Shown piece by piece: positions 4,597 through 43,548 of a stretch of DNA of 64,000 nt (its first letter is position 1; the number at the start of each line of letters is the position of its first letter). This stretch comes from a virus (lineage: Duplodnaviria; Caudoviricetes), in IMG/VR virus record IMGVR_UViG_3300024346_000006; one strand, 5' to 3'. The notes beneath the pieces were generated by a model that saw nothing but the letters and a program-made list of their open reading frames with translations, had not been told where the DNA came from and ran no database searches. The position numbers and the translations under genes were made by a program.

Positions 4597-5498
4597 AAAT
4601 CTCTGTGTAAAATTATCATTGTTCCGTGTTGTTGATCTTGCAAAACTATTCTCTTATTTGGGTTTGATTTTATGTATTTTCTAATATCAACAGCATCATC
4701 TTTTTCGATGAAGTTCTCCCATCTACCATACTTCTTTTTACCTCTCATAAATTTGTTAAAAGAATCTGGTTTTACCTTGAATATTTTCATTCCAGCAAAT
4801 TGATATGGATCTTGAATAAATCCACCAATGTTGGAAGAATCACCTACTACATTTGCAATATCCTCAACAACAAATTCTTCCGCTATTTCTGGATATGTTT
4901 GTTTCATGATCTTTGCAAGAGTTCTTCCATCTACTCCAGAATATGTTTTTGCAATCTGGTCAGAATAATAATTAATACTGTGTCTTAGACCTCTTATACC
5001 ACCTTCTTTTTTCTTTCTCTGCAAAACTTTTAACAAAGTATCAAGAGCATGGTCGTATACTTTCTTTTTACCAGTTTTTGATTTAATGACATTTATTACG
5101 TCATTAGACCACATTTCATTTAGAAGTTCAGACTCTTTGTTATGGTATTCTTCTTCTAAAATATTAATATAATCTAACAATGCAACTTCCAGTAGTTGCA
5201 GGTCGTCTTCTTTTAAATTTTCTTTATTCTCTTTAAGAAGTGCCATTGCAGCTGCATAAGTTGCAATTCTAGATCTACCGCCTGGAAACTTTTCTAAAAT
5301 TCTTTTGAGGTTAAAAATAATCTTATGAAAAACTGTGAAAGATTTTTTTTCTGCGTCTGTTTTCAGTTCATTAGTTTTTTTTAACTTATTCCCTTTATCA
5401 TCAATAACACCATTCTTAAACGCCTCAGTGTCGCTCCAAGGAGTTGTTAGAATTTTAATAAACTGATATGCAAGGTAGGCATTAAATACTGATGCCAT
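4593..5498 (-). CDS. Hypothetical T4-like protein, probable head/internal protein, modular
   Basis: 301 aa ORF; internal LLNE and FVVE sites flank a central module. Confidence 0.6.
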   Translation of the reverse strand: MASVFNAYLAYQFIKILTTPWSDTEAFKNGVIDDKGNKLKKTNELKTDAEKKSFTVFHKIIFNLKRILEKFPGGRSRIATYAAAMALLKENKENLKEDDLQLLEVALLDYINILEEEYHNKESELLNEMWSNDVINVIKSKTGKKKVYDHALDTLLKVLQRKKKEGGIRGLRHSINYYSDQIAKTYSGVDGRTLAKIMKQTYPEIAEEFVVEDIANVVGDSSNIGGFIQDPYQFAGMKIFKVKPDSFNKFMRGKKKYGRWENFIEKDDAVDIRKYIKSNPNKRIVLQDQQHGTMIILHRDL

Positions 5499-5893
5499 TA
5501 TATCTCTCCTAGAATTTGTACTATGTGGCTATCTCTTCCAATCATACTACTATCAATAGTCTTACCATTAACTCCTTCAATTTTATTTGGCAATCTATTT
5601 AAAAAGTCCAAAAAAGTTGCAAGAATATAATGTTGTTCTTCATCAATTTTCAAAAACAAAACTCTATTACAAGGCAATGTATTTAATACATTTAGTAATA
5701 CTACTAAATGATTTATTATCAACCTTTCCTTCAAAACGCCTTTAGTATGATACTTATGGAAAAGTCTTTTGACATATTTTATTCTTTTCATGTCATCAAG
5801 AAACTCTTCCATATTATGACATTGAGGATTGTCATAATGTTTCATTTGATAATTGGCTACAGTTGTCTCCGTCAAATTTTCAAAATTTTCCAT
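5498..5893 (-). CDS. Conserved hypothetical protein of marine T4-like phages
   Basis: 131 aa; YDNPQC...EEFLDDMKRIKYVKRL...LKERLIINH pattern recalled from T4-like phages. Confidence 0.6.
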   Translation of the reverse strand: MENFENLTETTVANYQMKHYDNPQCHNMEEFLDDMKRIKYVKRLFHKYHTKGVLKERLIINHLVVLLNVLNTLPCNRVLFLKIDEEQHYILATFLDFLNRLPNKIEGVNGKTIDSSMIGRDSHIVQILGEI

Positions 5894-5914
5894 GTTATAT
5901 TTCTTTTTATTTTA

Positions 5915-6277
5915 TTATTGTGGTAAAACCTCTGTCAATTCAGTGATCAAATCTTCTTTCTTTTTTCTTCTGTCCAACTCAAGTCCATGGTCTCTACCAA
6001 GGGACTCTAATTCGATTTTAGTTAAATCACTTAATTCAACAGGCCGGTCTGATTCCTCAGAATCAGATTCTTCAGAACCAGATTCTGGTGTTTCAACAAC
6101 CTCTACATTTTTCTTCGCAGAAGATTTTTTCTTTGGTGGAGCAAGTTCATCAATCTTATCTTTTAATCCATTGATTTTTTTGTATACTTCACCAGTATTT
6201 TCGTTTTCCCATCCACGATTGGTTGCTACTGCATTTTTCATCCACTTCGCTGGGGTTGCCCATTTAGGTAATGACAT
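5915..6277 (-). CDS. Hypothetical protein with C-terminal Rho-N/HeH-like helical domain
   Basis: C-terminal LSDLTKIELESLGRDHGLELDRRKKKEDLITEL after an acidic/Ser linker. Confidence 0.55.
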   Translation of the reverse strand: MSLPKWATPAKWMKNAVATNRGWENENTGEVYKKINGLKDKIDELAPPKKKSSAKKNVEVVETPESGSEESDSEESDRPVELSDLTKIELESLGRDHGLELDRRKKKEDLITELTEVLPQ

Positions 6278-6289
6278 TTAAGTTCTCCT

Positions 6290-9200
6290 CTATTTTATAT
6301 AACTTGCAATTTTTTTGGCTCTGGGTTTATTACCGTATTTTTCCATCGCCATTTGTTCTACTTCTTTTTTAACTTGGTTCGTATTATATTTAGGGTTCAT
6401 TTCTCTAACGATTTCTTCCATTTCCTTTGCATCTTTTTTATCGGAATTTTCAATGATTATATTGATTTCGTTAATCTCTTCCCTTTTCATAATTTTATAT
6501 GCAAGATCAACTAACTTAGGCAATGGAAGTTTTTCCATCTTAGACTTATTAGAGTCGTTGACCTTATCGTATATTTGAACAACTGCAGATGCAGTAAACA
6601 AATCAACGATAGTCCCTTTAATTTTCTTTGCCTGTTTGTTATCAACGATATCTCTCATATCATCAATAATAGACTCTGCAAAAAGTTCGGCCTCTTCTTT
6701 TAGTCCAAGTTTTTTTGCAAGGTCTGCGGCATCTTTGCCCATTCCATAAGAGTTGTCTTTGATTCTCTGTTTAAACCAATTTTTAATTACTGGACGAGCA
6801 TCACCCTTTGGATTTTTCTTACCAGCATCCGCAAGATCGTCAAACAATTCATCGTCACCCAAAAGACTATAAAGTACCTCTGTTGCATCATCTCCCTCTT
6901 TTCCGAGAGTAATTGGTTTAGACATCAATTTCTTTAATGCAGTCACTTCGGATGACTTGTCAGCAAATGCCCAAGTACCTTCTTGCAAATCTTCATTTGT
7001 TAATTGGATTGCTTTGGAAATTGCAGGATCATCAGAAAGTCCTTTTGCAATCTTTTCAATTGTTCCGATAATCTGTGTCATATTACCACCCTTCCAACGA
7101 GGGTCATTAAGAACACCAAATGCCATCTTGTACTGTTTCGTAGAATACTTTTTCTCACTAATAGTTTCTAATTCTTCGAAAATTCTTGCTGCCTGTCCAA
7201 GAGATATAGTGTTAATCGCACCCATATCATCTAAAGTTCTAAACTTAATACTTGTTCTGTCTAGTTGTAGTTCGACATCATAAACTTTTCCGTTTTTACC
7301 ACGAATACTATAGATAATTCCATTTTTCATTTTTGGGCTACTACCCTTAATTTTTGGAGCACGTTCTGTAATTTCTTCTTTTATATCTACAGGCGAAACT
7401 GCCATATCTCCGAAAGCCATTGTAACTCCTCCATCTCTTTTGTACAAATATCTTTTAGCACTAGTAGGACTATCTTTTCTTGCCAGAGTAATTTTTTCTA
7501 CTGTGCCGTTACGAACCATGTTCTTAGACTTGACAATATACTCAATAAAATCTTTACCCTTCTCTAACGCAGAGTCATGTTTGATTTTAACAGTAGAACC
7601 CTTTTTTAGTTTATCAAAAACTCTAAGTAACTTAGGGTCGTTCATCTTCATACCTTCAACCATTTCTGCCTTTGAAGACGCCTCTTGGACTTCTTCCTGT
7701 TTATGTTTTGCTCTGATTGTTGCAAGAAGTTCTTCACCCATTCTCTTACCCTGAGATGCACTAACATTAGTTGGAAACTTATCCATATTTGATGGTAAAG
7801 GCCTTCCAATCATTTTTTCGGATTCTTTTTGGCTCTGTGGTTTTGTAAGAGTAACAATCTTTAGAGTATTCTTATTCTTGATCGACATAGGCGGCAGTTC
7901 TGCAGAAGCTCTAGACTGTTTAACACCCTTTTCGCTAGATGCCATCGCAACAACTTTGTTACCGTTTGCAGTATCAATCAGTGCATGGGTGTTTTTCATT
8001 GCTTCATTCATTTCTGGGGTTTCGTGAGAATATCCTAGTTTTTTCATGCGTTCATGATCTTCTGGTTTTTCTGCTTTGTAACCTTTACCTGTCTTTGGAT
8101 CATACATCATATGTGGTTTGAATTCGCCTTCACCAAGTTCTACTTCTTCTTTGTACATGTTCAGTTCATATCTCTTGTTGTCAAGATTTGCAACTTGAAT
8201 TTGTACACCTCTAGATTTACCCTTCTTATCAGTACCCATCAAACGATACGAATTAGTTTTTCCATTAGATGGTTTTTTAGGGCCCATAGCAACTTTATCG
8301 TCAATTTCATCTGGGTCGATTTCAATTCCAAGTTTTTTCTTTGCATGGTCATATGCATGTTTCATTGCACTAGAAAAGTCTTTGTGATATAACTCGTAAC
8401 CAGTCGCAGACTTTGCTTCATCGAACCGCATTGAGTGTTGCCCAGTACTTCGAACCTTCTCTGCATCCTTCATAGTCTTGTAAGGTTTACCTTGGTTTAC
8501 AAATTTACCCTTAGTCATAACCTGTACTTGGAAACCTTTGTTTGGGAGTTTATCAACACCCAACTCTTTACGAATTTTGTCTTGTGCTTTGTTACCCAAA
8601 TCAATGATACGAACCGTACCTTCTTTAGATGCTTCATCAAGATCTTCTCCAACAAGTCTTTTTGCATACGCATTAAACGACTTTTGATCTTCTACAGAGT
8701 CTTTACCTTTACCTAGACCTTGGAAAATTTCTCTCCATGCCTTTCCGTCATTCGTCTTTTTGAAGTATGCCTGCAGTTTAGCAGCAGTTTTTTTGTCAAC
8801 ATTTATAATTTCTTTATCATCATAAGATAGACTCCCAATTGCATGTTTACCAGCTCTAACTTCCCAACGTTCTTCTAAAATTTTATTAAAAATTTCTTCG
8901 GTGGTGATATCTTCTTTTCTATATCCAAGTTTCTTCAATTTCTCTTTAAATGCAGATTGTCTACCATCAAATTGCTTTTCGTTAGAAAGGTCTTTTTTAC
9001 CTTGATCTTTATACATCAATTTCTGGAGTTTTTCTTTAAAGGCCTTTGTTCTACCATCCAATTCTTGTTTTTTAATTTCGATAGAATCTTTTACAGCGTT
9101 TTCTAAATTTCCCCTGTCGTTACACATATCACATCCTTTACCTTCACACTTAACGCAAGGCATCTTTCCTTCTTTTACCGCCTTCGCAACTTTGTCAGAA

Positions 9201-9445
9201 ATAGTGACAGGATACTCCTTATCGCCGAATTTAAATTTTGTCTTGCCTGCTGATTTCGCAGCACTAGCAGCACCAATAAAGTCAGCAACATCTTCTTCTC
9301 TTACTTTTTTTGCAACATCCTTACTGATAGTGACAGGATACTCTTTATCGCCAAGTTTAAATTTTTTCTCACCAGCGGCCTGCGCTGCAGACGCTGCACC
9401 AATAAAGGCGGCAATGTCTTCAATTGTCATATTCTTTTTAAACAT
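6290..9445 (-). CDS. Large mosaic protein; probable internal-head polyprotein processed at [LIVMF]xE sites
   Basis: 1051 aa, K/E-rich; ~14 short modules separated by motifs such as EDLDE|A, EMNE|A, EEVQE|A, EEITE|R, EDLQE|G; late-promoter-like GATAAATA just upstream (~9468-9475). Confidence 0.7.
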   Translation of the reverse strand: MFKKNMTIEDIAAFIGAASAAQAAGEKKFKLGDKEYPVTISKDVAKKVREEDVADFIGAASAAKSAGKTKFKFGDKEYPVTISDKVAKAVKEGKMPCVKCEGKGCDMCNDRGNLENAVKDSIEIKKQELDGRTKAFKEKLQKLMYKDQGKKDLSNEKQFDGRQSAFKEKLKKLGYRKEDITTEEIFNKILEERWEVRAGKHAIGSLSYDDKEIINVDKKTAAKLQAYFKKTNDGKAWREIFQGLGKGKDSVEDQKSFNAYAKRLVGEDLDEASKEGTVRIIDLGNKAQDKIRKELGVDKLPNKGFQVQVMTKGKFVNQGKPYKTMKDAEKVRSTGQHSMRFDEAKSATGYELYHKDFSSAMKHAYDHAKKKLGIEIDPDEIDDKVAMGPKKPSNGKTNSYRLMGTDKKGKSRGVQIQVANLDNKRYELNMYKEEVELGEGEFKPHMMYDPKTGKGYKAEKPEDHERMKKLGYSHETPEMNEAMKNTHALIDTANGNKVVAMASSEKGVKQSRASAELPPMSIKNKNTLKIVTLTKPQSQKESEKMIGRPLPSNMDKFPTNVSASQGKRMGEELLATIRAKHKQEEVQEASSKAEMVEGMKMNDPKLLRVFDKLKKGSTVKIKHDSALEKGKDFIEYIVKSKNMVRNGTVEKITLARKDSPTSAKRYLYKRDGGVTMAFGDMAVSPVDIKEEITERAPKIKGSSPKMKNGIIYSIRGKNGKVYDVELQLDRTSIKFRTLDDMGAINTISLGQAARIFEELETISEKKYSTKQYKMAFGVLNDPRWKGGNMTQIIGTIEKIAKGLSDDPAISKAIQLTNEDLQEGTWAFADKSSEVTALKKLMSKPITLGKEGDDATEVLYSLLGDDELFDDLADAGKKNPKGDARPVIKNWFKQRIKDNSYGMGKDAADLAKKLGLKEEAELFAESIIDDMRDIVDNKQAKKIKGTIVDLFTASAVVQIYDKVNDSNKSKMEKLPLPKLVDLAYKIMKREEINEINIIIENSDKKDAKEMEEIVREMNPKYNTNQVKKEVEQMAMEKYGNKPRAKKIASYIK

Positions 9446-9473
9446 GAAAAATCTCCGTTTTTTTACTATTTAT

Positions 9474-11600
9474 CTATTTTTTAACCTTGGCCCACAAATC
9501 TGCATCACCAGTAGTTCTTGTTTTCCCACCTGTGATAAAAGAATTCACTCTCGCAAACGCCCATTGTTGTGGAGTAGTTCCCGGCCTGTGGCCACCCTTC
9601 CAGGCCGCCATACCTCTATCATATACCTTTTTTAGAATTTCATATGAAATACCAGATTTATCTGCCTTTTTAACTAATCCAGCAATCTTTGCTTCGTCTA
9701 ATGTCTCTGTACTATCTTCGCCAAACATCTGCTTATATTTCTTAGTATATTGTGAAGGTTTCGTTTCTGCATCTGTATCTCCAGGCGCTGGTTTATAAGA
9801 AGAATCTTTTCTATCTGGTTTAGATGCCTGTTTTTTAAAATGAGCAGCTCTTTTATCTTTAGTAGACTTGGACATCTCATCACCATCAGCATCTTTTGCA
9901 TAATACTTTTTTGGTTGAGATCCCTCTTTGTCTTTGATATCTGGGTCTTGAGTTGTCTTTCTTTCGTAAATAAATTGTGAAAAACTTTTTATATTCTCTT
10001 CTAAATCTTCCGCAGAATAACCAAGTTTCTTTTTTAGTATATTCATTGCAGTTGCCATCTTAACTTGCATCCACTCATCGCCGTATCTTTTCTTAAAATC
10101 ATCATCTGGCAAATCTTTTGCAATCTTTTCTAAATCCTTTTCTCTTTCTGGATTCATCTTAAAATCTTCTAGTTTATTTCCGTCCTTGTCGTACTTACCA
10201 GATTTCTTTTTCGCAATCGCAATCGCAGCCTGTTGAGCTCTAGATACACCTTCATCTTTTCCAGAAATCCTGTCACGGAAATCTTTTTTAATTTCTCCAT
10301 CTGTCACTTTCTCAACATCTTGAATAATCTTTGGATTTTTTAATAATTTGCGTAGGTTGTTTTTAACTTCCCCAGCACTACTTGCATCTATATAAAAAGT
10401 AGGTAATCCTTCAATATCTACTTGATAATTTGCTTCCTCAAGACTTTCATATTTTAATTCTTTACTTGATGTAGAAAAATTCTTTTTACGCATGATTGTT
10501 TTATGTACAACTTCAAACTCACCATTCTTGTAATTGATGACTACAGGCAGATTTAAATTAGTTGACATGTCTTTGAGAACTGCTTCGATATCAGGATTTG
10601 ACTTAATCTGCGAACCTTTTTTCTTTTGAATCTTTTTGAAAAACTTTTGAAGTTCTGCAACTTTAATCTCTGGGTCATTTCTTTTATCATTCATTCTGTC
10701 AACAAAATGTCTTGTAAATGTAACATCAATATCATACTTTGCAAGCATTCTATCTGCAAACTTTTCTAAATCATCAATTTGTTTTTGAGACACTTCCTCA
10801 TTATTGTATATTTTTTTATATACCGTATCATAATCATCATCAATACCAATTTTAAAATCTAACTCTTTATAAACAGATTCCATCAATATTTCATCTTCGA
10901 TATCTTCTACAATCTCTACAAATTCTGTTTCAATAAAACGTGAAAAGTCTGCATTGGTTGCTTCAAGAAACTCTAACAATTCTTCACTTATATTCATTGA
11001 CTTTCTGAGAGTATCAAATAATTTTTTTCCATTAGACTTTTCAAAGTCAGAAGGCAAACCAGATTTAAATCCGTTGAGTATTTTACCAGTTTTCGGGTCT
11101 TTCTCATCTTCATATCTATTTGCAGCTGCTGCTGCTCTCATTTTAGATGCTGACATACCAGCAACACCCTCTGCATCAGGATCTCTTTCCCCCGCAGAAA
11201 CTACTTCAATACCATCTTTAAAATCATAGAAACCATGGCTTCCTTCTTTACCATTATATTTGTTAAGTGTAGTTTTAAATTCTGTAACTCTATCTCCACC
11301 GACAACCATAATACATCTCTTATAACCCATGTCATATAACATAGGAGCAATCATAAATGCAGTCTTTGCATTTCTATTAGAGATGATATTGCGAGAATAC
11401 TTTGGAAACATCTTTTTCATAAAACCAACTTTAGTTTTATGATCTAAAGGATCTTTTTTGTCATTTTGTGAATGACTAGGAAATACCATAAAGTCGGCGC
11501 CTTCTTTTTTAGCAACCGATGCAAGTTTTTTTATTAATTTTTCGTGTCCTGTGGTTGGGGGATTAAACCTACCAAATGTAAAAATTACTGTATCTTTCAT
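9474..11600 (-). CDS. HxGH nucleotidyltransferase (cytidyltransferase-like) fused to several C-terminal modules
   Basis: TFGRFNPPTTGHEKL, VVGGDRV, VVSAGERDPD...MSASKMR; C-terminal YDRGMAAWKGGHRPG...WAFARVNSF domain. Confidence 0.8.
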   Translation of the reverse strand: MKDTVIFTFGRFNPPTTGHEKLIKKLASVAKKEGADFMVFPSHSQNDKKDPLDHKTKVGFMKKMFPKYSRNIISNRNAKTAFMIAPMLYDMGYKRCIMVVGGDRVTEFKTTLNKYNGKEGSHGFYDFKDGIEVVSAGERDPDAEGVAGMSASKMRAAAAANRYEDEKDPKTGKILNGFKSGLPSDFEKSNGKKLFDTLRKSMNISEELLEFLEATNADFSRFIETEFVEIVEDIEDEILMESVYKELDFKIGIDDDYDTVYKKIYNNEEVSQKQIDDLEKFADRMLAKYDIDVTFTRHFVDRMNDKRNDPEIKVAELQKFFKKIQKKKGSQIKSNPDIEAVLKDMSTNLNLPVVINYKNGEFEVVHKTIMRKKNFSTSSKELKYESLEEANYQVDIEGLPTFYIDASSAGEVKNNLRKLLKNPKIIQDVEKVTDGEIKKDFRDRISGKDEGVSRAQQAAIAIAKKKSGKYDKDGNKLEDFKMNPEREKDLEKIAKDLPDDDFKKRYGDEWMQVKMATAMNILKKKLGYSAEDLEENIKSFSQFIYERKTTQDPDIKDKEGSQPKKYYAKDADGDEMSKSTKDKRAAHFKKQASKPDRKDSSYKPAPGDTDAETKPSQYTKKYKQMFGEDSTETLDEAKIAGLVKKADKSGISYEILKKVYDRGMAAWKGGHRPGTTPQQWAFARVNSFITGGKTRTTGDADLWAKVKK

Positions 11601-12271: not shown

Positions 12272-12814
12272 TTACCAGAAAAAATTACCACCACCACTTA
12301 ATCCAAGTTGTTTTGCATACTTTGGAAGTCTACATGCCCAATAGCCTGGTTTTGTCTTATCGTTTTTCTGATCGCAATTATGTCTTGCAACAAAACTCTT
12401 TCTTGCCTCTGGGTCATTAATTTTTGCAGTCAATCCTGTTGTATCCCCAAATGAAATCTTAATTACATTTCCTTTATCATTTTTAACATATACATAATAC
12501 TTTTTCTTACCACCCCTCTTTGGGGAATTCAATTCTACATCTTCTTCCATCAAGGGGCAGTCTAAAGGAACATATACGGCATCAAATTCTTGTTTCTCAA
12601 ACATCGCCCACTCACCAATATCTGTTTGTAACATTTCAATGTCGTAAAGGTCAAACTCGAGCTTACCTTCTTCATATAATTTTCTCGCCACTCTAAAGGT
12701 TTTGTAAAAATTATTTGAACCTAGACGAAAGACATTATCAATTAGTGGTATTTCATTCTGTCTATGATACAACACCATTTCTTCTATATTTTGAAACTGT
12801 TTATAAGTTTTCAT
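12272..12814 (-). CDS. Hypothetical two-module protein with capsid-targeting-like N-terminus
   Basis: Start re-assigned to 12814 (MKTYKQFQNIEE; ATGA overlap with upstream stop); C-terminal KKYYVYVKN...SFGD...RKSFVARHNC...GYWACR domain. Confidence 0.65.
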   Translation of the reverse strand: MKTYKQFQNIEEMVLYHRQNEIPLIDNVFRLGSNNFYKTFRVARKLYEEGKLEFDLYDIEMLQTDIGEWAMFEKQEFDAVYVPLDCPLMEEDVELNSPKRGGKKKYYVYVKNDKGNVIKISFGDTTGLTAKINDPEARKSFVARHNCDQKNDKTKPGYWACRLPKYAKQLGLSGGGNFFW

Positions 12815-13314
12815 CTCAATAACTTCTCCAATTCTCTCATAGTCTTCGCTGGATTGATATGACGAATACCAATACCACCTTTCGCTTCCCATTCTTTTAT
12901 ATTCTTAGGATAATCATCAATTAGAATATTTGGTTTATCATTTGTTGTAGCAAATTTCTGTTTATCTTCTCGTTGGACTAAATGTATTTTTCCATTCAAT
13001 CTCAAATTTTTTGAAATCCAAGCTCTTTTACCTTTTTGCGAATTCGAATCTCTTTTGGAATATGCAGATAAAATGTTTGCATTGTACTTGTTTAACATTT
13101 TCCACATCTTTTCCGAGCCTGACATCCATGGTAGGGTGTGCCAAAAATCTTTCTTGGATTTAATATCTTCCCATCTTTCTTCTTTGTCGGTTGATGCAAA
13201 GTCTTTATTAAATGCGGTTGTATAACCGCCTGTGAAATTACAAAGAACTTCGTCCATATCACAATAAATTTCTGGCATTTCTTTTTCAAAAATATATTGA
13301 TTGAAAGTTTTCAT
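12811..13314 (-). CDS. HAD-family 5'(3')-deoxyribonucleotidase-like phosphatase
   Basis: IYCDMDEVL (DxD), ILSA, ILIDDYPKN; N-terminus MKTFNQYIFE. Confidence 0.85.
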   Translation of the reverse strand: MKTFNQYIFEKEMPEIYCDMDEVLCNFTGGYTTAFNKDFASTDKEERWEDIKSKKDFWHTLPWMSGSEKMWKMLNKYNANILSAYSKRDSNSQKGKRAWISKNLRLNGKIHLVQREDKQKFATTNDKPNILIDDYPKNIKEWEAKGGIGIRHINPAKTMRELEKLLR

Positions 13315-13604
13315 TTCATTAAACCTTTTATTACTTTTAGTGCCATCTTACCATCTGGGTGATGCGGATTAATACTGACTTCATCCCCATTAACAAAATC
13401 AGAAATACTAGCTGACTTGCCAAGAGCAGTAATTGCTTTGTGTAGTGGATCTTTTGGATCGTATCTTCGTTCAAAATTGGGTTTTCCTCTTAGTTCGACC
13501 CAGCTCTTTTCTTTAGTATCCCACATCTTAAGTACATCTTGATCTTTACCACGAACCAATTTGAGCTTAATACCTTCAGAAAGATATTGAGTAAAACCTA
13601 ACAT
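13311..13604 (-). CDS. Hypothetical protein with capsid-targeting-like N-terminus
   Basis: 97 aa; MLGFTQYLSE leader. Confidence 0.6.
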   Translation of the reverse strand: MLGFTQYLSEGIKLKLVRGKDQDVLKMWDTKEKSWVELRGKPNFERRYDPKDPLHKAITALGKSASISDFVNGDEVSINPHHPDGKMALKVIKGLMK

Positions 13605-14548
13605 CAGTCATCGTCCATTTCGTCCATGATACTGTAATCATAAACAGCGTCGATGTAATCCTTTGCCTTCGTCACTTTAGAAACTACCCACGCCTCCATT
13701 TCATATTCATTATTTTGTGGATTATCGACTTCTTCCATAAGTGCCTCTGCAAGTTCTGTGGACTTATTAGAAAGAATGATGAGTTGTCTCAACATCATCT
13801 CCAAACTATCCTGTGCAAACTCTGCGTCTTCTATAAATAGTTCTTCTTTAATTCCTCTTGCGGCCTTTTCTGCAGAAATCCACTTTTTAGCGACAGTTTT
13901 AGTTGGTGATTTCTTTGTCCACGCTCCAATAGTTCTATATGCCCTCATAACATCTCTTTCAAAGTCTGCGCCGTCAGAGTTATCAATTACAAACATTTTT
14001 TCCTTAAATGCAGACTGAAATTTACCAATGTTTCCTTGAACACCTTTCCACATAGATTCAACTTCATTGTCTGGAAGACTTCTCGCTCTTAATCTATTTC
14101 GGTTTAATGCGGTGTCTAAATCGGTATTGACAAAAATCATTGCGGTTTCGTAACCCATCGCCTCTAACTTGTCTTTTTGTTTTTTAATTTTATCATAATC
14201 TTTTCCAGTACCATCGACAACAAGTCCAAGTCTACCCCTCATATATCCCGCCTGTTGCGCCGCAGTAAGTGCTTTTGCTTTACCTCTTACTTGTTGTCCA
14301 AGGTCAGAGAAAATATCATCTGGATTTCCTTTGTCCAGTCCCGACTTATCCAACGCCCTTTCAAATGCAGGGTCGGAGTTTACAACTCTCAATCCAAAAG
14401 AAGTAAGTGCAGTTCTACCTACAATAAAAGATTTACCAGAACCTGGCCCACCGGCGAGGAACACCGCCTTAAAGATGCCTGGGTCATTGATACCTTCTTC
14501 TAAAGTTTCTTCATTTCTAAGATTTTCGATTATATTTCTTATATCCAT
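13604..14548 (-). CDS. P-loop kinase (AAA_33/zeta-toxin/PNK-like) with extra C-terminal helical module
   Basis: LAGGPGSGKS Walker A, LVVDGTG, ALNRNRLR lid; start re-assigned to 14548 (MDIRNIIE), just after upstream stop. Confidence 0.8.
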   Translation of the reverse strand: MDIRNIIENLRNEETLEEGINDPGIFKAVFLAGGPGSGKSFIVGRTALTSFGLRVVNSDPAFERALDKSGLDKGNPDDIFSDLGQQVRGKAKALTAAQQAGYMRGRLGLVVDGTGKDYDKIKKQKDKLEAMGYETAMIFVNTDLDTALNRNRLRARSLPDNEVESMWKGVQGNIGKFQSAFKEKMFVIDNSDGADFERDVMRAYRTIGAWTKKSPTKTVAKKWISAEKAARGIKEELFIEDAEFAQDSLEMMLRQLIILSNKSTELAEALMEEVDNPQNNEYEMEAWVVSKVTKAKDYIDAVYDYSIMDEMDDD

Positions 14549-14549
14549 T

Positions 14550-15803
14550 TTACTTGTCCCATGCCTTTGCTGCAGTAAAGTTATTATAACTAAATTCCAT
14601 TCGATCAACAATTTTCACGGCATTACCCTTTGTATCAATTGCAACATAACCTTCTGGATTTGTCACTTCATAACCGTTTTCTGTACGAACAAAAATCTGC
14701 GTTAACTGTTTAACACTATTTAGTTTATTTATAATAAGAGATTTAGCACCAATTAATTCTTCCATAAAATCAACAATTGAATATGCAACACTGTCTAATT
14801 TAATTAATTGTTTTACTGCATCATCTCTAATTCTTTCTTTATCTTTTCTTGCACCTTCTGTTTTTAACTTTGCAATAACTTTTTCGTCAAAAAACTTTTT
14901 AACATACATCGAATAGTCTAAATTTTTCATGTTCTTTGTAGAAATATTCTGTCCTTCACGAATATATGTGTTGAGATAGGTTTTGAAACTTGCACCAGCA
15001 AGTCCTTTAATAAAAATTTTGTTTTGGAGTTGCATAAATGTTTTAAAATCGTTTGATCTGATTTTCTTAAATTTTCTACCAACTTGAGACATTTGCCCAT
15101 CGAGTGTTTTTAGTTCGGACGAAGTAAATTTTGCAGAACCAGAAACATCTTTATATGTTGCATCATCCATCCACACAGATGATGTTTTCTTTAATCCAGA
15201 TATATTCACACCAAAAGAGGCCGTCATCGATGGTAAATCTTTTCCAGAATATGTTGTATGCCAAACAACACCAATCTTTGCAGCGTTGATTGCCTTTCCT
15301 AAATCAGAATCTTTCTGAACTGCATACATCAATGTGTTTTGTTGGAATGTTAGATATGTCTCGCCATCAAGTGTTTTTTCTGACACATCATCAGTAAACA
15401 TTAAGTCTCCTTGAATAACACCCTTAATTCCCAATTTAGAAAATTCTCGATATGCAACAGTAAATTTTGATTTTAATGCGGGACTTAGTTTTATATCTGC
15501 ATCGATCTCTGCAGTACTTTTATATAATAGTGGAGTCTCATTAAATACAGATTTTTTTGCGATAAAGAATTTTCCATCACTTGGATCTATTCCAGCGAAT
15601 ATAGCAGGAGCACCGTCCCACTTAACTGTCATGTTTACTTTAGAATCTGAATTTCCTGCCAACATGTCTCTTAAAGATAAAAGAAATTGTACAGCGGCAC
15701 GGCCACCATCGATTCCAAAGTTGAGAATTTCATCTTCAAGGTGTTCTAAGTGTAGATTTTTTCCACCTTTTGATTCAGTAAGATATTTTTTAAATGATTG
15801 CAT
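14550..15803 (-). CDS. DUF6267-like protein with ATP-dependent ligase (Rnl1-like) motifs
   Basis: VKWDGAP (KxDG), IQGDLMF, PEGYVAI, AVKIVD; N-terminus MQSFKKYLTE. Confidence 0.65.
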   Translation of the reverse strand: MQSFKKYLTESKGGKNLHLEHLEDEILNFGIDGGRAAVQFLLSLRDMLAGNSDSKVNMTVKWDGAPAIFAGIDPSDGKFFIAKKSVFNETPLLYKSTAEIDADIKLSPALKSKFTVAYREFSKLGIKGVIQGDLMFTDDVSEKTLDGETYLTFQQNTLMYAVQKDSDLGKAINAAKIGVVWHTTYSGKDLPSMTASFGVNISGLKKTSSVWMDDATYKDVSGSAKFTSSELKTLDGQMSQVGRKFKKIRSNDFKTFMQLQNKIFIKGLAGASFKTYLNTYIREGQNISTKNMKNLDYSMYVKKFFDEKVIAKLKTEGARKDKERIRDDAVKQLIKLDSVAYSIVDFMEELIGAKSLIINKLNSVKQLTQIFVRTENGYEVTNPEGYVAIDTKGNAVKIVDRMEFSYNNFTAAKAWDK

Positions 15804-17164
15804 TAGTAAAGTTTCCCGAATGGCCCAAATATTTTCCCCTTCTTTTGGGCAAGATATGTTAAAGTTGTTAGTAAATCATCTCTTTTTTCATCATTTGTGA
15901 TGGAGACAATTTCACACACCAAATGGAGTTGCATCAATTTACTATGAGCATAATCTGGTCTTGATGTGTTAAATGCCGATACCATATTTTTTTGAAACTG
16001 GTTTTCGGTTATTCCTGTATATTGTTTTACTTTGTTGAATTTATATAAGAATTTATTATAATCGTTCATGAATTCTTCTTCAGATGTAGGATAGTTTGTA
16101 TTATCATTATCCCAATTAAGGCCTTCGTCTGTAAAAATTTTTCTGGCCATGTCTAAAGGAACTTTACCAAGTCTTGCGGAAGTTGCGCCCAAGTCTGTTC
16201 CTTCAATTTTTAAATTATTAAAACCAGCACTATTTTGTCTGATTTGAAATTTAATTCTTCCCTTTTTACCTGATACAACAATTTTGGTATCTGAGTTAAC
16301 AAACTCTCCATTTCCCTTTGTCTTAAGATTGATATCGATGTCTTGTAATTTAAAGTTATATTCTTTATCATCAAAGATGTCCATGTTTTCTAGATTTACA
16401 AGTTCCCATCTTGCAGTTGTACCTGACATCTTTTTTAGGGAAATACCAACTATTCTTCTTTCATGGAACATATCTCTTAGAATGGCGTTAAATTCTTCTA
16501 GGGAAGTTACATCATCTAATACTTTTTCTTTTAAGGTGTTTTTTACTTTATTAAGGTCAGATACCAACCATATGTCTGCAGGGTTCCAAGTATCTTTTTT
16601 TGCAATACCATATTTTTGTTTACAAATTCCAGTAATGTAATCCATAAATCCACGGTCTCTGGAATAGTGTTTATAACTACTGTTTCCGACTTTATTATAT
16701 GTTGTTAATTGTTGCTGAAAGAATGTATTTTCCCATTCTTCATTCATAGCTGGATAAATCTTTTTTAGATCATCACGGTATAGTTTCATAAACTTGCCTT
16801 GATCTGTGTATCCATTATTTTCAATACCCATTTTTATCGCAAAAAGGGAGGCGAGTTCTTGCATCTGGGTAGTTTTCCCATCAGAACCGCCTCCCATTCC
16901 ACTAAAGGGTGCTTTATCTATTTGTGTCCACTTGTATCCATTAAAAATTGGAAGGTATTTACCACTTTTTGTCAAAGAACTCATAACTCTAGGTTGCGAC
17001 TTGTCCTTCACTGCCCCAAGAAACTTCTTTACTTCTGGAGTCAATTGAACCATAGCCTTTGATCTATCCGCAAACTTTAGTTCTTTTTTACTATTAATCA
17101 CATCTGCAACCATATTCAAGTATGGTTTTTCAAACTTTGTTTCTTTTGCTCCAAGGTTTGCCAA
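15803..17164 (-). CDS. Hypothetical protein, possible PD-(D/E)xK nuclease fold
   Basis: 453 aa, TTG start with AAGGGA SD; QELAS, WNPADIWLV, GISLKK motifs. Confidence 0.5.
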   Translation of the reverse strand: MANLGAKETKFEKPYLNMVADVINSKKELKFADRSKAMVQLTPEVKKFLGAVKDKSQPRVMSSLTKSGKYLPIFNGYKWTQIDKAPFSGMGGGSDGKTTQMQELASLFAIKMGIENNGYTDQGKFMKLYRDDLKKIYPAMNEEWENTFFQQQLTTYNKVGNSSYKHYSRDRGFMDYITGICKQKYGIAKKDTWNPADIWLVSDLNKVKNTLKEKVLDDVTSLEEFNAILRDMFHERRIVGISLKKMSGTTARWELVNLENMDIFDDKEYNFKLQDIDINLKTKGNGEFVNSDTKIVVSGKKGRIKFQIRQNSAGFNNLKIEGTDLGATSARLGKVPLDMARKIFTDEGLNWDNDNTNYPTSEEEFMNDYNKFLYKFNKVKQYTGITENQFQKNMVSAFNTSRPDYAHSKLMQLHLVCEIVSITNDEKRDDLLTTLTYLAQKKGKIFGPFGKLY

Positions 17165-17195: not shown

Positions 17196-17203
17196 TATTT
17201 ATA
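17196..17203 (-). promoter_or_regulatory. T4-type late promoter TATAAATA heading the 17.2-3.5 kb locus
   Basis: Exact TATAAATA on minus strand 32 nt upstream of start at 17164. Confidence 0.8.
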
Positions 17204-40052: not shown

Positions 40053-41432
40053 TTATACAGAATTGATATTGTCTACACGGAAGATTCTGTAGTAGGTATT
40101 TGAACGAGCTGTAAGAGCACCGTTACCAACTGTTGTACCTTCTGCATATGGGTTAGCAACCAATCCATAACGAGTCTTGAACCCGATTTTTGGTTGGAAA
40201 CTGTTCTCACCAACTGCACGAACCATCTGCAATGGAACGTATGGGCAATAGAAGAATCCAGCATCATATGGAGATGTACCTCTGAATCCAACCATTACGA
40301 AGTCGGTATTGTTGGCAGACGAGAAGTATGGGTCAATGTATACTTTGAAACGTCCGTTAAGTATTCCAGCAAATGTCGAACCAGTGTCATCAACATTCAA
40401 ACCTGTTGACATTTGTGGGTTGTACTCAAGAAGACCTGCCATTGCAAGTGCGGAAGCAACGTCTGAAGAACAAACGATTACGTTACCCTTACCACGGCGA
40501 GTTTCTTTAGCAATTGTGTTTGCTTCTCTCTCAATGTGGAACATAAGTCCTTTGAACTTCTCAACACTCCAACGTCCGTCAGCGTCTGTTGCAAGGTCAT
40601 ATACACCTGTGTTAGTTACTTGAGTTTGAGCACCAAGTTTTGCGATACCGTACATTGTGCGAAGAACTTCACGGTTAATTTCTGCAGTAATTTCTGTAGA
40701 AAGAATTGTTGAAAGTTCTGCTTCTGCGTCAAGTCCATGAACCGCTTTCAAGTCTTGTGAAAGTTCAGTTGTGTACTCAGCTTTCAATGCTCTTGTTTTT
40801 GCGGTTACTGATACTCTCTCAATTGAGAATGCCATTTGGTTGAAGTGACCGTCTGCAGTCATTGTAGAACCGTTACCTAACAATTCACCCTGTGCAGTTG
40901 AGCCAGGAATACCAGTTGTTACTGTTGAACCAGTTTCATCCAATGAACCAGTAGCAATAACAGCACCAGCGAATGGATCTGTACCTGAGTGATTTGGTCC
41001 TGCAACATCACCAGAAAACTCTGTGTTTGCTTCATTGAATGATGCTTCTGCACCAGCCTGATTGGTATAACGTGAACGCATCGCAAAGATAAGTCCAGTT
41101 GGTCCTGTCATTGGTTGTACACCACAAAGGTCATATGCCATTAGGTTTGGCACGGTTCTACGAAGCATAGAAATGATGACTGGGTCTGCATACTGGATAT
41201 TACCAGCAGAAGAACCTGTTGGTGCAACACTTGTTGGTGATTCGTTAAGTTGATCCAAAGAAGAACGTCCTAAGGCGTTTTCTTTGATTGTGGCTTGTTC
41301 TGTATTCTCAAGAAGAATAGCAGTTACTGCCTTTCTGTATGGGTCTGTGATCTCGGCATGTTCACCATGGTCAAGAACGGGTGCCCACTTTTCTTTTAAT
41401 TGTTGAACAAAGTTCTCGTTATAGTCGTGCAT
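40053..41432 (-). CDS. gp23: Major capsid protein
   Basis: KWAPVLD, GVQPMTGPTGLIFAMR, RALKAEYTTELSQDLKAVHGLDAE, FYCPYVPL, FKTRYG. Confidence 0.99.
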   Translation of the reverse strand: MHDYNENFVQQLKEKWAPVLDHGEHAEITDPYRKAVTAILLENTEQATIKENALGRSSLDQLNESPTSVAPTGSSAGNIQYADPVIISMLRRTVPNLMAYDLCGVQPMTGPTGLIFAMRSRYTNQAGAEASFNEANTEFSGDVAGPNHSGTDPFAGAVIATGSLDETGSTVTTGIPGSTAQGELLGNGSTMTADGHFNQMAFSIERVSVTAKTRALKAEYTTELSQDLKAVHGLDAEAELSTILSTEITAEINREVLRTMYGIAKLGAQTQVTNTGVYDLATDADGRWSVEKFKGLMFHIEREANTIAKETRRGKGNVIVCSSDVASALAMAGLLEYNPQMSTGLNVDDTGSTFAGILNGRFKVYIDPYFSSANNTDFVMVGFRGTSPYDAGFFYCPYVPLQMVRAVGENSFQPKIGFKTRYGLVANPYAEGTTVGNGALTARSNTYYRIFRVDNINSV

Positions 41433-42649: not shown

Positions 42650-43285
42650 TTAAAGTTTTGACACAAAATTTTTGAAAACTCTCAGTTTTGTTTCTTCTAA
42701 TTGTTGCCTTTTGGCCTTTTTAAGAGAGTCTTGGTATTCTGCAATTTGAGCTTCTTTAATAATACCGTTGTCCCAAACCCACTCTCTACCTTCCATAATA
42801 CCTTCTACAAATGCATTGGGTGCGGAAGGGTCTGCAACAATGTCAGCAGCAGTTGCAAGATAAAAGTCATCTTGAACAACATTTGCACCACCTGACTGTT
42901 TTACACTACCCATACCTCTAGAAGAAACACCTAAAGATGCACCTTCTTTGATGAGGTTGCTAACGATAGCACCATAAGGAGTATCAGTCATAATTTTTGC
43001 TTTACCAACAAAGTTATCACCATCTCTCTTAAGTTCTTTAATCATATGGGAAACTCTTTCCAGATTGATAGTTGGGCCTTCTGGGTGTCCAAGTTCTCCA
43101 AATGCTCTATTTTTTTGAATGTAGTTTTCATTATATCTTTGAACTTCTCTTTCGAGAACTTCTGTAGGATACACTCTACCATTTCTATTTTTGACATTTG
43201 ATTGTAAGAAAATGCCTTCAATGAAAAGGTCTTTTCCTTTGGATTCTACCAGAATGTCTTCAACTACTTCCGTAATTAGTTTCAT
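42650..43285 (-). CDS. gp21: Prohead protease
   Basis: MKLITE, NRNGRVYP, GELGHP, GVSSRGMGS, DIVADPSAPNA. Confidence 0.97.
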   Translation of the reverse strand: MKLITEVVEDILVESKGKDLFIEGIFLQSNVKNRNGRVYPTEVLEREVQRYNENYIQKNRAFGELGHPEGPTINLERVSHMIKELKRDGDNFVGKAKIMTDTPYGAIVSNLIKEGASLGVSSRGMGSVKQSGGANVVQDDFYLATAADIVADPSAPNAFVEGIMEGREWVWDNGIIKEAQIAEYQDSLKKAKRQQLEETKLRVFKNFVSKL

Positions 43286-43548
43286 ATTCCTGTCCTTCTT
43301 TGAAGTGATCTTCTTCTACGGAGATTTGCAATATTAACCTTGCCTTTTCTTTTCCTTGCGGAACGAGTGTTTCTAATACTCATTTTTCGCAGAGCGCCTG
43401 GATTAATCTTGACCTCTCTCTTGTTAATTACTTTATAACCGGCCTTATCAGACACATATTTAATTTTTCTTTTACCTTTTCTGATGACTATTTTTCTTTT
43501 GACTGCTTCGTCAAGGTCATCTTCCAAGAATTCTAAAAAAGAATGCAT
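43282..43548 (-). CDS. gp68: Prohead core protein gp68-like
   Basis: Basic, position before gp21; leader MHSFLEFLEDDLDE|A. Confidence 0.7.
   Translation of the reverse strand: MHSFLEFLEDDLDEAVKRKIVIRKGKRKIKYVSDKAGYKVINKREVKINPGALRKMSIRNTRSARKRKGKVNIANLRRRRSLQRRTGI

Follow-up and report, generated by a model that had tools for sequence, protein, structure and literature searches.

Does the head of a marine relative of phage T4 deliver, together with the DNA, enzymes that mend the ends of broken nucleic acids? The question is raised by a locus in a 64,000-nt stretch of DNA (IMG/VR record IMGVR_UViG_3300024346_000006; hereafter the window, meaning the whole stretch) from an uncultured marine T4-like myovirus. 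The initial annotation had seen there near-adjacent genes for a ligase-like protein with a KxDG motif, a P-loop kinase and a DxD phosphatase of the HAD type, and had proposed that their products form an RNA end-healing and sealing module packaged in the virion. The three genes are as annotated, with all their features in place on the minus strand. The locus is best explained as part of a late-transcribed cargo operon, most of whose proteins bear a decapeptide equivalent to the capsid targeting sequence (CTS) of the T4 internal proteins, and these leaders are the best-supported part of the finding. As to packaged RNA repair, the packaging tag and the ligase-like and polynucleotide kinase-like identities of two of the enzymes held up, and the three-enzyme kit is weakly supported, the phosphatase being of the NT5C type and the co-occurrence of the trio partial.

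In the reading that we propose, the leader tag would direct each protein to the prohead's scaffolding core, a gp21-type protease would cleave behind the [LI]-x-E at the end of the tag, and the mature enzymes would stay packaged until they are injected together with the phage DNA. From the first moment of infection, the kinase would then phosphorylate 5′-OH ends and the ligase would reseal broken RNA or other nucleic acid, so that early end repair by the packaged pair would pre-empt host ribonuclease defences. The HAD phosphatase may remove 3′ or 2′ phosphates, its action on free nucleotides being equally likely. We give an even chance to this composite reading of packaged nucleic-acid-end enzymes.

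The window contains the T4-type structural genes gp23, gp22, gp21 (prohead protease), gp20, gp18 and gp19, together with UvsW, gp46/47-like genes, UvsX and a gp41-type helicase, and nearly all genes lie on the minus strand. Its closest relatives among isolates are Melnitz, a phage of OM43 (about 59-71% identity in parts of the region), and the Pelagibacter phage HTVC008M, both of the Kyanoviridae. The operon and its promoter elements are the following (a slash in a leader marks the predicted cut):

17196..17203, minus strand: late promoter box of the T4 type, TATAAATA; the p453 start codon follows 32 nt downstream.
15803..17164, minus strand: p453, 453 aa, phrog_1462, a function-unassigned family; first gene of the operon.
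14550..15803, minus strand: ligase-like protein of the DUF6267 family, 417 aa; leader at residues 1-10 (15774-15803), KWDG at residues 61-64 (15612-15623).
14726..14733, minus strand: a further copy of the TATAAATA box, which lies within the ligase gene and precedes the kinase start by about 175 nt.
13604..14548, minus strand: P-loop kinase, 314 aa counted from the ATG that its homologues use; Walker A at 14429-14452.
13311..13604, minus strand: p97, 97 aa, between kinase and HAD; leader MLGFTQYLSE/G.
12811..13314, minus strand: NT5C-type HAD, 167 aa; leader MKTFNQYIFE/K, DMDEV at residues 19-23 (13246-13260).
12272..12814, minus strand: p180, 180 aa; leader MKTYKQFQNIEE, C-terminal phrog_7595 domain.

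From p453 to p180 the start and stop codons of successive genes abut or overlap, hence we considered them as one operon. The longest open reading frame (ORF) of p180 begins upstream, at 12892; its leader Met at 12814 abuts the stop codon of the HAD gene and is the true start. The small protein p97 gave no family match in Pfam and PHROG searches and is probably a small head-internal protein. In the window p453 has no leader; its homologue in a related locus (L080) begins MINFKTYISE. The late expression postulated in the initial annotation is supported by the TATAAATA box 5′ of the operon. Boxes of this type are enriched in the window, with 15 sites against 6.9 expected, and 13 are on the minus strand, most of them directly upstream of structural genes (gp23, gp22, gp19, gp18 and others). 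The box at 14726..14733 is, by its sequence, a possible internal late promoter.

In T4, the first ten residues of internal protein IPIII suffice for targeting to the head, and mutagenesis of the CTS assigned residues 4 and 7 to targeting and residues 8 and 10 to processing, gp21 cutting after L/I-x-E (PMC9026906). The leaders of the window are alike at these four positions. Precisely, positions 4 and 7 are aromatic in the leaders of the ligase-like protein (MQSFKKYLTE), p97, the HAD and p180. In the first three of these, L/I at 8 and E at 10 complete the pattern of T4 IPI, IPII and IPIII, and p180 has a slightly longer variant that ends in IEE. We considered as a leader the pattern M..[FYW]..[FYW][LIVMFQ].{0,3}E at an ORF start. 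It heads 5 ORFs of the window, whereas 200 codon shuffles yielded 0.15 on average and never more than 2; the CTS-like leaders first remarked on the ligase-like and HAD proteins are thus non-random. As a control we ran the same pattern on the whole T4 genome, where 0.2 matches were expected; it recovered IPII, IPIII and two further ORFs. The control scan listed a 54-aa ORF of the T4 record (NC_000866, 18966-19130, minus strand) that begins MKTFKEFIKE.

The fifth leader-bearing ORF of the window and the protease lie side by side among the head genes:

43282..43548, minus strand: very basic ORF of 88 aa, beginning MHSFLEFLED, between the portal (gp20) and protease (gp21) genes.
42650..43285, minus strand: gp21-type prohead core serine protease (Peptidase_S77, E 4.8e-37), beside gp22, gp23 and gp20.

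The 88-aa ORF occupies the place where T4 encodes prohead core proteins and is, on its sequence, a candidate internal or core protein. The gp22 scaffold was recognised as T4_CASP at 1e-60. By analogy with T4, the gp21-type protease is expected to be the enzyme that removes the leaders. The gp23 homologue (40053-41432, minus strand) has LNE/S at residues 62-64, close to the maturation cut of T4 gp23, which fits a T4-like gp21 specificity.

The kinase differs from its neighbours in having a variant 18-residue propeptide, which ends in LEE/G directly before the start of the conserved domain. The initial annotation had singled out this site, and the comparison of homologues agrees with it, since in most of them the canonical leader ends exactly there. 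In 62 of 120 kinase homologues the strict decapeptide forms the N-terminus and runs straight into the conserved G-[VI]-NDP domain start, and [LIVM]x[EQ]/G is found at the domain start in 114 of the 120. Some homologues of the kinase and DUF6267 are longer, with other modules before the domain and an [LIVM]xE cut-site motif at the joint, so that the fusions look like polyproteins.

The tag is also carried by many other proteins. At least 14 unrelated protein clusters bear it in 80 related loci, a RimK-like ATP-grasp protein and an EF-hand protein being among them. As with the T4 internal proteins, the cargo genes are diverse and fast-changing, with only the leader in common; unlike in T4, sizeable enzymes (ligase-like, kinase, phosphatase, nucleotidyltransferase) are among the cargo, which occurs also in polyproteins with cut sites at the joints, and the hosts are marine bacteria. 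Single examples of other tagged cargo are the RimK-like ATP-grasp protein of locus L058 (3768-4841), an EF-hand/dockerin-like protein of L015 (11242-12111) and a DUF6321 protein of L072 (11726-12058).

Two leader-bearing proteins have been reported in virions of cyanophages. The cytidylyltransferase gp154 of S-CREM2, which begins MKNFSSFLTE, was detected in purified virions by mass spectrometry (PMC10665884), and the same paper, citing Dreher et al., gives Ser/Thr kinases as identified in S-CRM01 virions. The Ser/Thr kinase g130 of S-CRM01 begins MISFDQFLSE and is encoded two genes downstream of the DUF6267 gene. In the two loci concerned (L083 of S-CRM01, 5019-10826; L193 of S-CREM2, 7609-9726), leader-bearing genes code for the Ser/Thr kinase, small proteins and the cytidylyltransferase, and the leaders of these freshwater and estuarine cyanophages read MISFDQFLSE, MKKLDQFLTE, MKLFNQFFKE and MKNFSSFLTE. 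A literature search for a capsid targeting sequence in cyanophages found nothing relevant; to our knowledge, the T4 tag has been studied almost solely in T-even coliphages. Taking the leader sequences and the T4 analogy together, we consider it probable that the leader-tagged proteins are packaged in the head.

What, then, would the packaged enzymes be? Over its full length the ligase-like protein belongs to Pfam DUF6267 (E 5.5e-98) and to phrog_455, both function-unassigned families, and a literature search found no mention of DUF6267. The family is large: it comprises 2,567 clusters at 50% identity in a representative library and gave at least 8,000 matches in a 90% collection, being found in 460 isolate phage records, nearly all of cyanomyoviruses, and in thousands of marine metagenome proteins. 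In an alignment of 67 homologues (34-64% identity) the invariant residues include H18, H21, K61, D63, G64, Q131, D133, H182, T183, E384, G385 and K397, with the spacing expected of motifs I, III, IV and V of covalent nucleotidyltransferases. Motif I is the KWDG at 61-64, whose K61, D63 and G64 are invariant in 67 of 67; motif IV is the EG at 384-385, and K397 belongs to motif V, in which the second lysine is not conserved and an invariant D400-R401 stands in its place. The invariant H18 and H21 are near the predicted mature N-terminus. A helical insert of ~135 residues (about 227-362) separates motif IIIa from motif IV. Motif V is followed by just 20 residues, with one short helix (401-410) in the AlphaFold2 (AF2) model, hence the protein has no OB domain; a C-terminal OB domain with motif VI was accordingly not found, and Pfam DNA_ligase_A_M was not matched.

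The AF2 model of the ligase-like protein is confident (pLDDT 91, pTM 0.88). When it was compared with solved structures by VIA-align, RNA ligases filled 8 of the top 10 places, the best being NgrRnl of Naegleria gruberi (5cot; Z 8.2, 186 residues, rmsd 3.9), followed among the RNA ligases by TbREL1 (7.9), Trl1 (7.8, 7.6 and 6.8), T4 Rnl2 (7.4), T4 Rnl1 (7.0) and an archaeal Rnl3 (6.6), with DNA ligases below them at Z 5.2-6.4. In BFVD, the first named matches outside DUF6267 were again RNA ligases (prob 0.96-0.97). The best core matches, to Rnl5 (NgrRnl), the Rnl2 family and Trl1, cover 177-202 residues at Z 7.4-8.2; unlike these enzymes, from which it differs with only 10-14% identity, DUF6267 has the helical insert before motif IV and D400-R401 in motif V. 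At the sequence level, a local hhalign alignment of residues 380-398 with T4 Rnl1 223-241 (47% identity, only 19 columns, P 0.058) pairs E384 with E227, G385 with G228 and K397 with K240, so that an EGYVA...K block of motifs IV and V is common to DUF6267 and Rnl1. Pfam RNA_lig_T4_1 was touched by 2 of the 67 members (best E 6e-4), DUF6267 reached no Pfam RNA ligase family above the cut-off, its alignment gave no meaningful match to T4 Rnl2 in hhalign, and the ligase sequence found no match among solved structures in single-sequence and profile searches. The ligase assignment therefore comes from VIA-align, BFVD and the motifs, not from sequence or Foldseek-PDB matches.

On these grounds the 417-aa protein very probably has the fold of a ligase, that is, of a covalent nucleotidyltransferase. 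The ligase-like identity given in the initial annotation stands, the closest solved structures being RNA ligases and KxDG being invariant, and from the model we conclude that DUF6267 is a putative, previously unrecognised, divergent ligase-type nucleotidyltransferase, nearer to RNA ligases than to DNA ligases. The likeness to T4 has its limits, as this is a family separate from Rnl1.

The kinase carries a GGPGSGKS P-loop and an R151/R155 lid, and bears an acidic helical C-terminal extension. In Pfam it matches Zeta_toxin (1e-9) and AAA_33 (1.9e-6), and a profile search against PDB sequences was ambiguous, with PSTK, adenylate kinase 1 and zeta toxin all near E 1e-3. The AF2 model (pLDDT 85) gave in VIA-align PSTK (Z 15.0), the putative kinase 2rhm (14.0) and the Clostridium thermocellum polynucleotide kinase CthPnk (14.0), then zeta toxin (12.8), T4 Pnk (12.1), Pnkp1 of the Pnkp1-Rnl-Hen1 complex (12.1) and AvrRxo1 (11.6); nucleoside monophosphate (NMP) kinases ranked beneath the nucleic-acid kinases (PSTK, CthPnk, T4 Pnk, Pnkp1, Kti12). 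Foldseek placed zeta first (3q8x, E 5.5e-7) and CthPnk next. With T4 Pnkp, hhalign aligned 145 columns at 92% probability (E 6e-7), pairing K40 with K15, S41 with S16, D60 with D35, R151 with R122 and R155 with R126. The P-loop Lys and Ser, the catalytic Asp 20 residues downstream and the RxxxR lid are all invariant in 48 homologues. The protein is a hydroxyl-directed P-loop kinase of the PNK/PSTK/zeta clade, in agreement with the P-loop and lid first noted; a polynucleotide substrate is plausible in the light of the alignment and of the modelled fold. With the zeta/PezT toxins and AvrRxo1 it shares the best Pfam family and the best Foldseek match; unlike zeta/PezT it is without an antitoxin partner, and zeta has a Z below those of PSTK and CthPnk. 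The publication on phage RsoM2USA says nothing on the kinase homologue.

The third enzyme passes the Pfam gathering cut-off for NT5C (36 bits, against 24.8) and matches phrog_2643 (5′-3′ deoxyribonucleotidase) at 7e-34, phrog_415 reaching only 0.006. Its four HAD motifs (DMDxV, Ser, Lys and the LIDD motif IV) align with those of the mitochondrial 5′(3′)-nucleotidase 4mum. By its sequence, then, the 167-aa cargo is an NT5C-type HAD phosphomonoesterase, and this family assignment favours mononucleotides as substrates. NT5C enzymes hydrolyse 3′- and 2′-monophosphates of nucleosides, hence the chemistry would be compatible with 3′-end healing. Of the earlier description, the DxD HAD and its NT5C-like character were retained.

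A P-loop kinase, a DxD HAD and a KxDG nucleotidyltransferase are thus all encoded here, as in the T4 pair Pnkp (pseT) and Rnl1 (rnlA). The T4 enzymes heal and seal tRNA against the PrrC anticodon nuclease and are made after infection; we know of no anticodon nuclease for the host of this phage. Unlike in T4, where Pnkp is bifunctional, kinase and HAD are here separate polypeptides, the HAD is of the NT5C subfamily, the ligase has the ~135-residue helical insert and the genes are late and leader-tagged. The set of kinase, phosphatase and ligase recalls also the bacterial Pnkp/Hen1 and Pnkp1-Rnl-Hen1 systems, whose kinases the model matches (CthPnk, Pnkp1); unlike there, no Hen1 methyltransferase was noticed at the locus. 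The phosphatase of the bacterial Pnkp/Hen1 systems is a metallophosphoesterase, not a HAD.

The initial annotation had treated the three genes as a module, and we examined their neighbourhoods in IMG/VR loci centred either on DUF6267 or on the kinase. The counts of loci with each partner were:

80 DUF6267 loci: kinase 26, NT5C HAD 6, other HAD 3, cytidylyltransferase-like domain 60.
25 of these DUF6267 loci, with at least 5 kb downstream: kinase 14, NT5C HAD 4, other HAD 1, cytidylyltransferase-like domain 22.
80 kinase loci: NT5C HAD 1, other HAD 0, cytidylyltransferase-like domain 31, DUF6267 33.

On these counts the evidence for a module is mixed and the trio does not appear to be conserved: a kinase is near 26 and a HAD near 9 of the 80 DUF6267 genes, and DUF6267 is near 33 of the 80 kinase genes. 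The full trio is present in 6 of the 80 DUF6267 loci, which represent three lineages and two unrelated HAD types. In HTVC008M, DUF6267, the kinase, the cytidylyltransferase and the NT5C HAD are all within 7 kb. Loci L022 and L023 (61% ligase identity) and L040 (75%), from two other lineages, have the ligase and the kinase with an unrelated leader-tagged HAD of subfamily III (Acid_phosphat_B, 1.6e-5; phrog_415 'polynucleotide kinase', 8e-8), which in L040 fills the slot between p97 and p180. This swap looks like a non-orthologous replacement. The small genes p97 and p180 were found in 19 and 37 of the 80 related DUF6267 loci, respectively. Isolates that matched the kinase query were only HTVC008M, two jumbo phages and Melnitz, in which 52 kb separate the kinase from DUF6267. 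Replication genes surround the kinase in several other T4-like contigs. The NT5C HAD query matched 68 phage records, mostly of rhizobiophages without DUF6267.

Several points weigh against the reading of packaged nucleic-acid-end enzymes. The co-occurrence of DUF6267, kinase and HAD is partial, and of ~450 cyanophage isolate records with DUF6267 none was matched by the kinase and HAD queries. Since the locus gathers every kind of leader-tagged gene, proximity is weak evidence of a shared pathway, and the fusions, being polyprotein-like with cut sites, are no functional links either. On the ligase side, Foldseek of the model against PDB gave nothing significant, the structural Z values are moderate (not above 8.2) and the hhalign match to Rnl1 is as short as stated. 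On the kinase side, Zeta_toxin is the family that Pfam ranks best, and the substrates of its characterised members are small nucleotide sugars. An equivalent of T4 Arg38 was not found in the hhalign alignment, where an invariant Phe, F63, aligns at its place; Arg38 of T4 Pnkp binds the phosphate 3′ of the terminal nucleoside, and the likeness of this kinase to T4 Pnk is to that extent incomplete. The HAD has no similarity to the T4 Pnkp phosphatase (BLASTP E 1.2), and a cap domain is suggested by its spacing of ~60 residues between motifs I and II, not by a structure; caps are typical of HADs that act on small molecules. DUF6267 is leaderless in S-CRM01 and S-CREM2, and that of S-CREM2 is absent from the portions examined of the virion list in PMC10665884, hence packaging of DUF6267 would follow the leader and be lineage-specific, the lineage of the window being one that has it. 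For this phage, moreover, packaging, leader cleavage and every enzyme activity are things that we infer.

Three other explanations have to be set beside the one proposed. The enzymes may be independent capsid cargo with small-molecule nucleotide substrates and no common pathway, co-located by shared late expression and packaging. The kinase would then act on a nucleotide sugar or an NAD-like molecule, so as to shut off the host or destroy a signal, deoxynucleoside monophosphates or other mononucleotides would be the substrates of the NT5C phosphatase, and the NMNAT-like transferase encoded nearby would make a dinucleotide. We hold this to be rather unlikely. It would account for the best Pfam matches (Zeta_toxin, NT5C) and for phrog_2643, for the Phe in place of Arg38, for the presence of AvrRxo1 and zeta among the structural matches of the kinase, for kinase genes that are often amid replication genes far from DUF6267, as in Melnitz, for the NT5C homologues in phages mostly without DUF6267 and for clearly unrelated cargo at the locus (the RimK-like ATP-grasp, the EF-hand protein, a Ser/Thr kinase). 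It leaves, however, the ligase-like protein unexplained, as the covalent nucleotidyltransferase ligase superfamily acts on polynucleotide 5′ ends; besides, nucleic-acid kinases outrank NMP kinases structurally, and two unrelated HADs adjoin ligase and kinase in different lineages.

DUF6267 might also be a phage DNA ligase, for Okazaki fragments or nicks of the injected genome, with DNA ends cleaned by the kinase and the phosphatase, as T4 Pnkp can do. In the whole records of Melnitz (MZ577097) and HTVC008M (NC_020484) we found neither a canonical DNA ligase domain (ATP- or NAD-dependent) nor an RNA ligase of the Rnl1 or Rnl2 type, T4 serving as positive control, hence DUF6267 is their only ligase-like gene; this, the adjoining helicase and UvsX replication genes and the DNA ligases among the structural matches speak for such a role. 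We judge it quite improbable, however, because RNA ligases stand above DNA ligases in both fold libraries (VIA-align and BFVD), an OB domain and a motif VI region are lacking, S-CRM01 holds DUF6267 plus an ATP-dependent DNA ligase, and a late promoter with a targeting leader is unlike a replication enzyme. It is very improbable, finally, that the shared N-terminus is a translation-initiation or folding feature spread by local recombination, with the enzymes cytoplasmic in late infection. Some DUF6267 members are indeed leaderless, and the authors of the S-CREM2 study (PMC10665884) caution that abundant proteins may co-purify with virions. Yet the conserved positions are exactly those important in the T4 CTS, the pattern recovers IPII and IPIII, it occurs also at internal joints of fused proteins, where translation initiation is irrelevant, its fifth copy is on the basic ORF between portal and protease genes, and two leader-bearing cyanophage proteins (S-CREM2 gp154 and S-CRM01 g130) are reported in virions.

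Within the packaged-enzyme reading, a role of the ligase and the kinase as an RNA healing-sealing pair, suggested by the models, is plausible but tentative, and rather less likely than not. For the HAD such a role is doubtful, and it is unlikely that ligase, kinase and HAD work in one pathway. The wider proposal, that marine T4-like heads are preloaded with enzymes, single or as polyproteins, which include a complete RNA end-healing and sealing kit around DUF6267, is likewise unlikely. If true, it would be the first virion-delivered RNA repair system, countering host ribonuclease defences before phage gene expression, and ligase and kinase repairing RNA on arrival would add a novel strategy of timing to the arms race between phage and host. 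The assignment of DUF6267 to the RNA-ligase branch gives a concrete biochemical hypothesis for a widespread ocean-phage gene. The same tag on enzymes of SAR11, OM43 and cyanobacterial phages would explain the 'non-structural' enzymes in cyanophage virion proteomes, and the leader determinants would give a simple sequence rule to predict injected proteins.

Downstream of the operon genes listed above is a further multi-module gene:

9474..11600, minus strand: multi-module protein of 708 aa, with an N-terminal cytidylyltransferase/NMNAT-like HxGH domain, a C-terminal DUF5824 and three modules between.

In order, it consists of the HxGH transferase, an FTRHFVDR module, another module, a leader-like internal junction KSFSQFIYE/R near residue 550, a KDKEGSQPKKYY module and DUF5824. 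A RegB-like endoribonuclease at residues about 255-395 received no support from Pfam (E up to 10), PDB sequences or the ESM Atlas. Cytidylyltransferase-like genes are the commonest neighbour of DUF6267 (60 of the 80 loci) and in some proteins the two are fused; we considered this fusion as a Rosetta-stone functional link and dropped it, the junctions keeping [LIVM]xE cut sites in a polyprotein-like manner. Modules of the 708-aa protein are also fused to the kinase in other phages. A charged protein of 1051 aa (6290-9445, minus strand) has a duplicated N-terminal repeat and many [LI]xE sites, and pieces of it recur in related loci in differing order.

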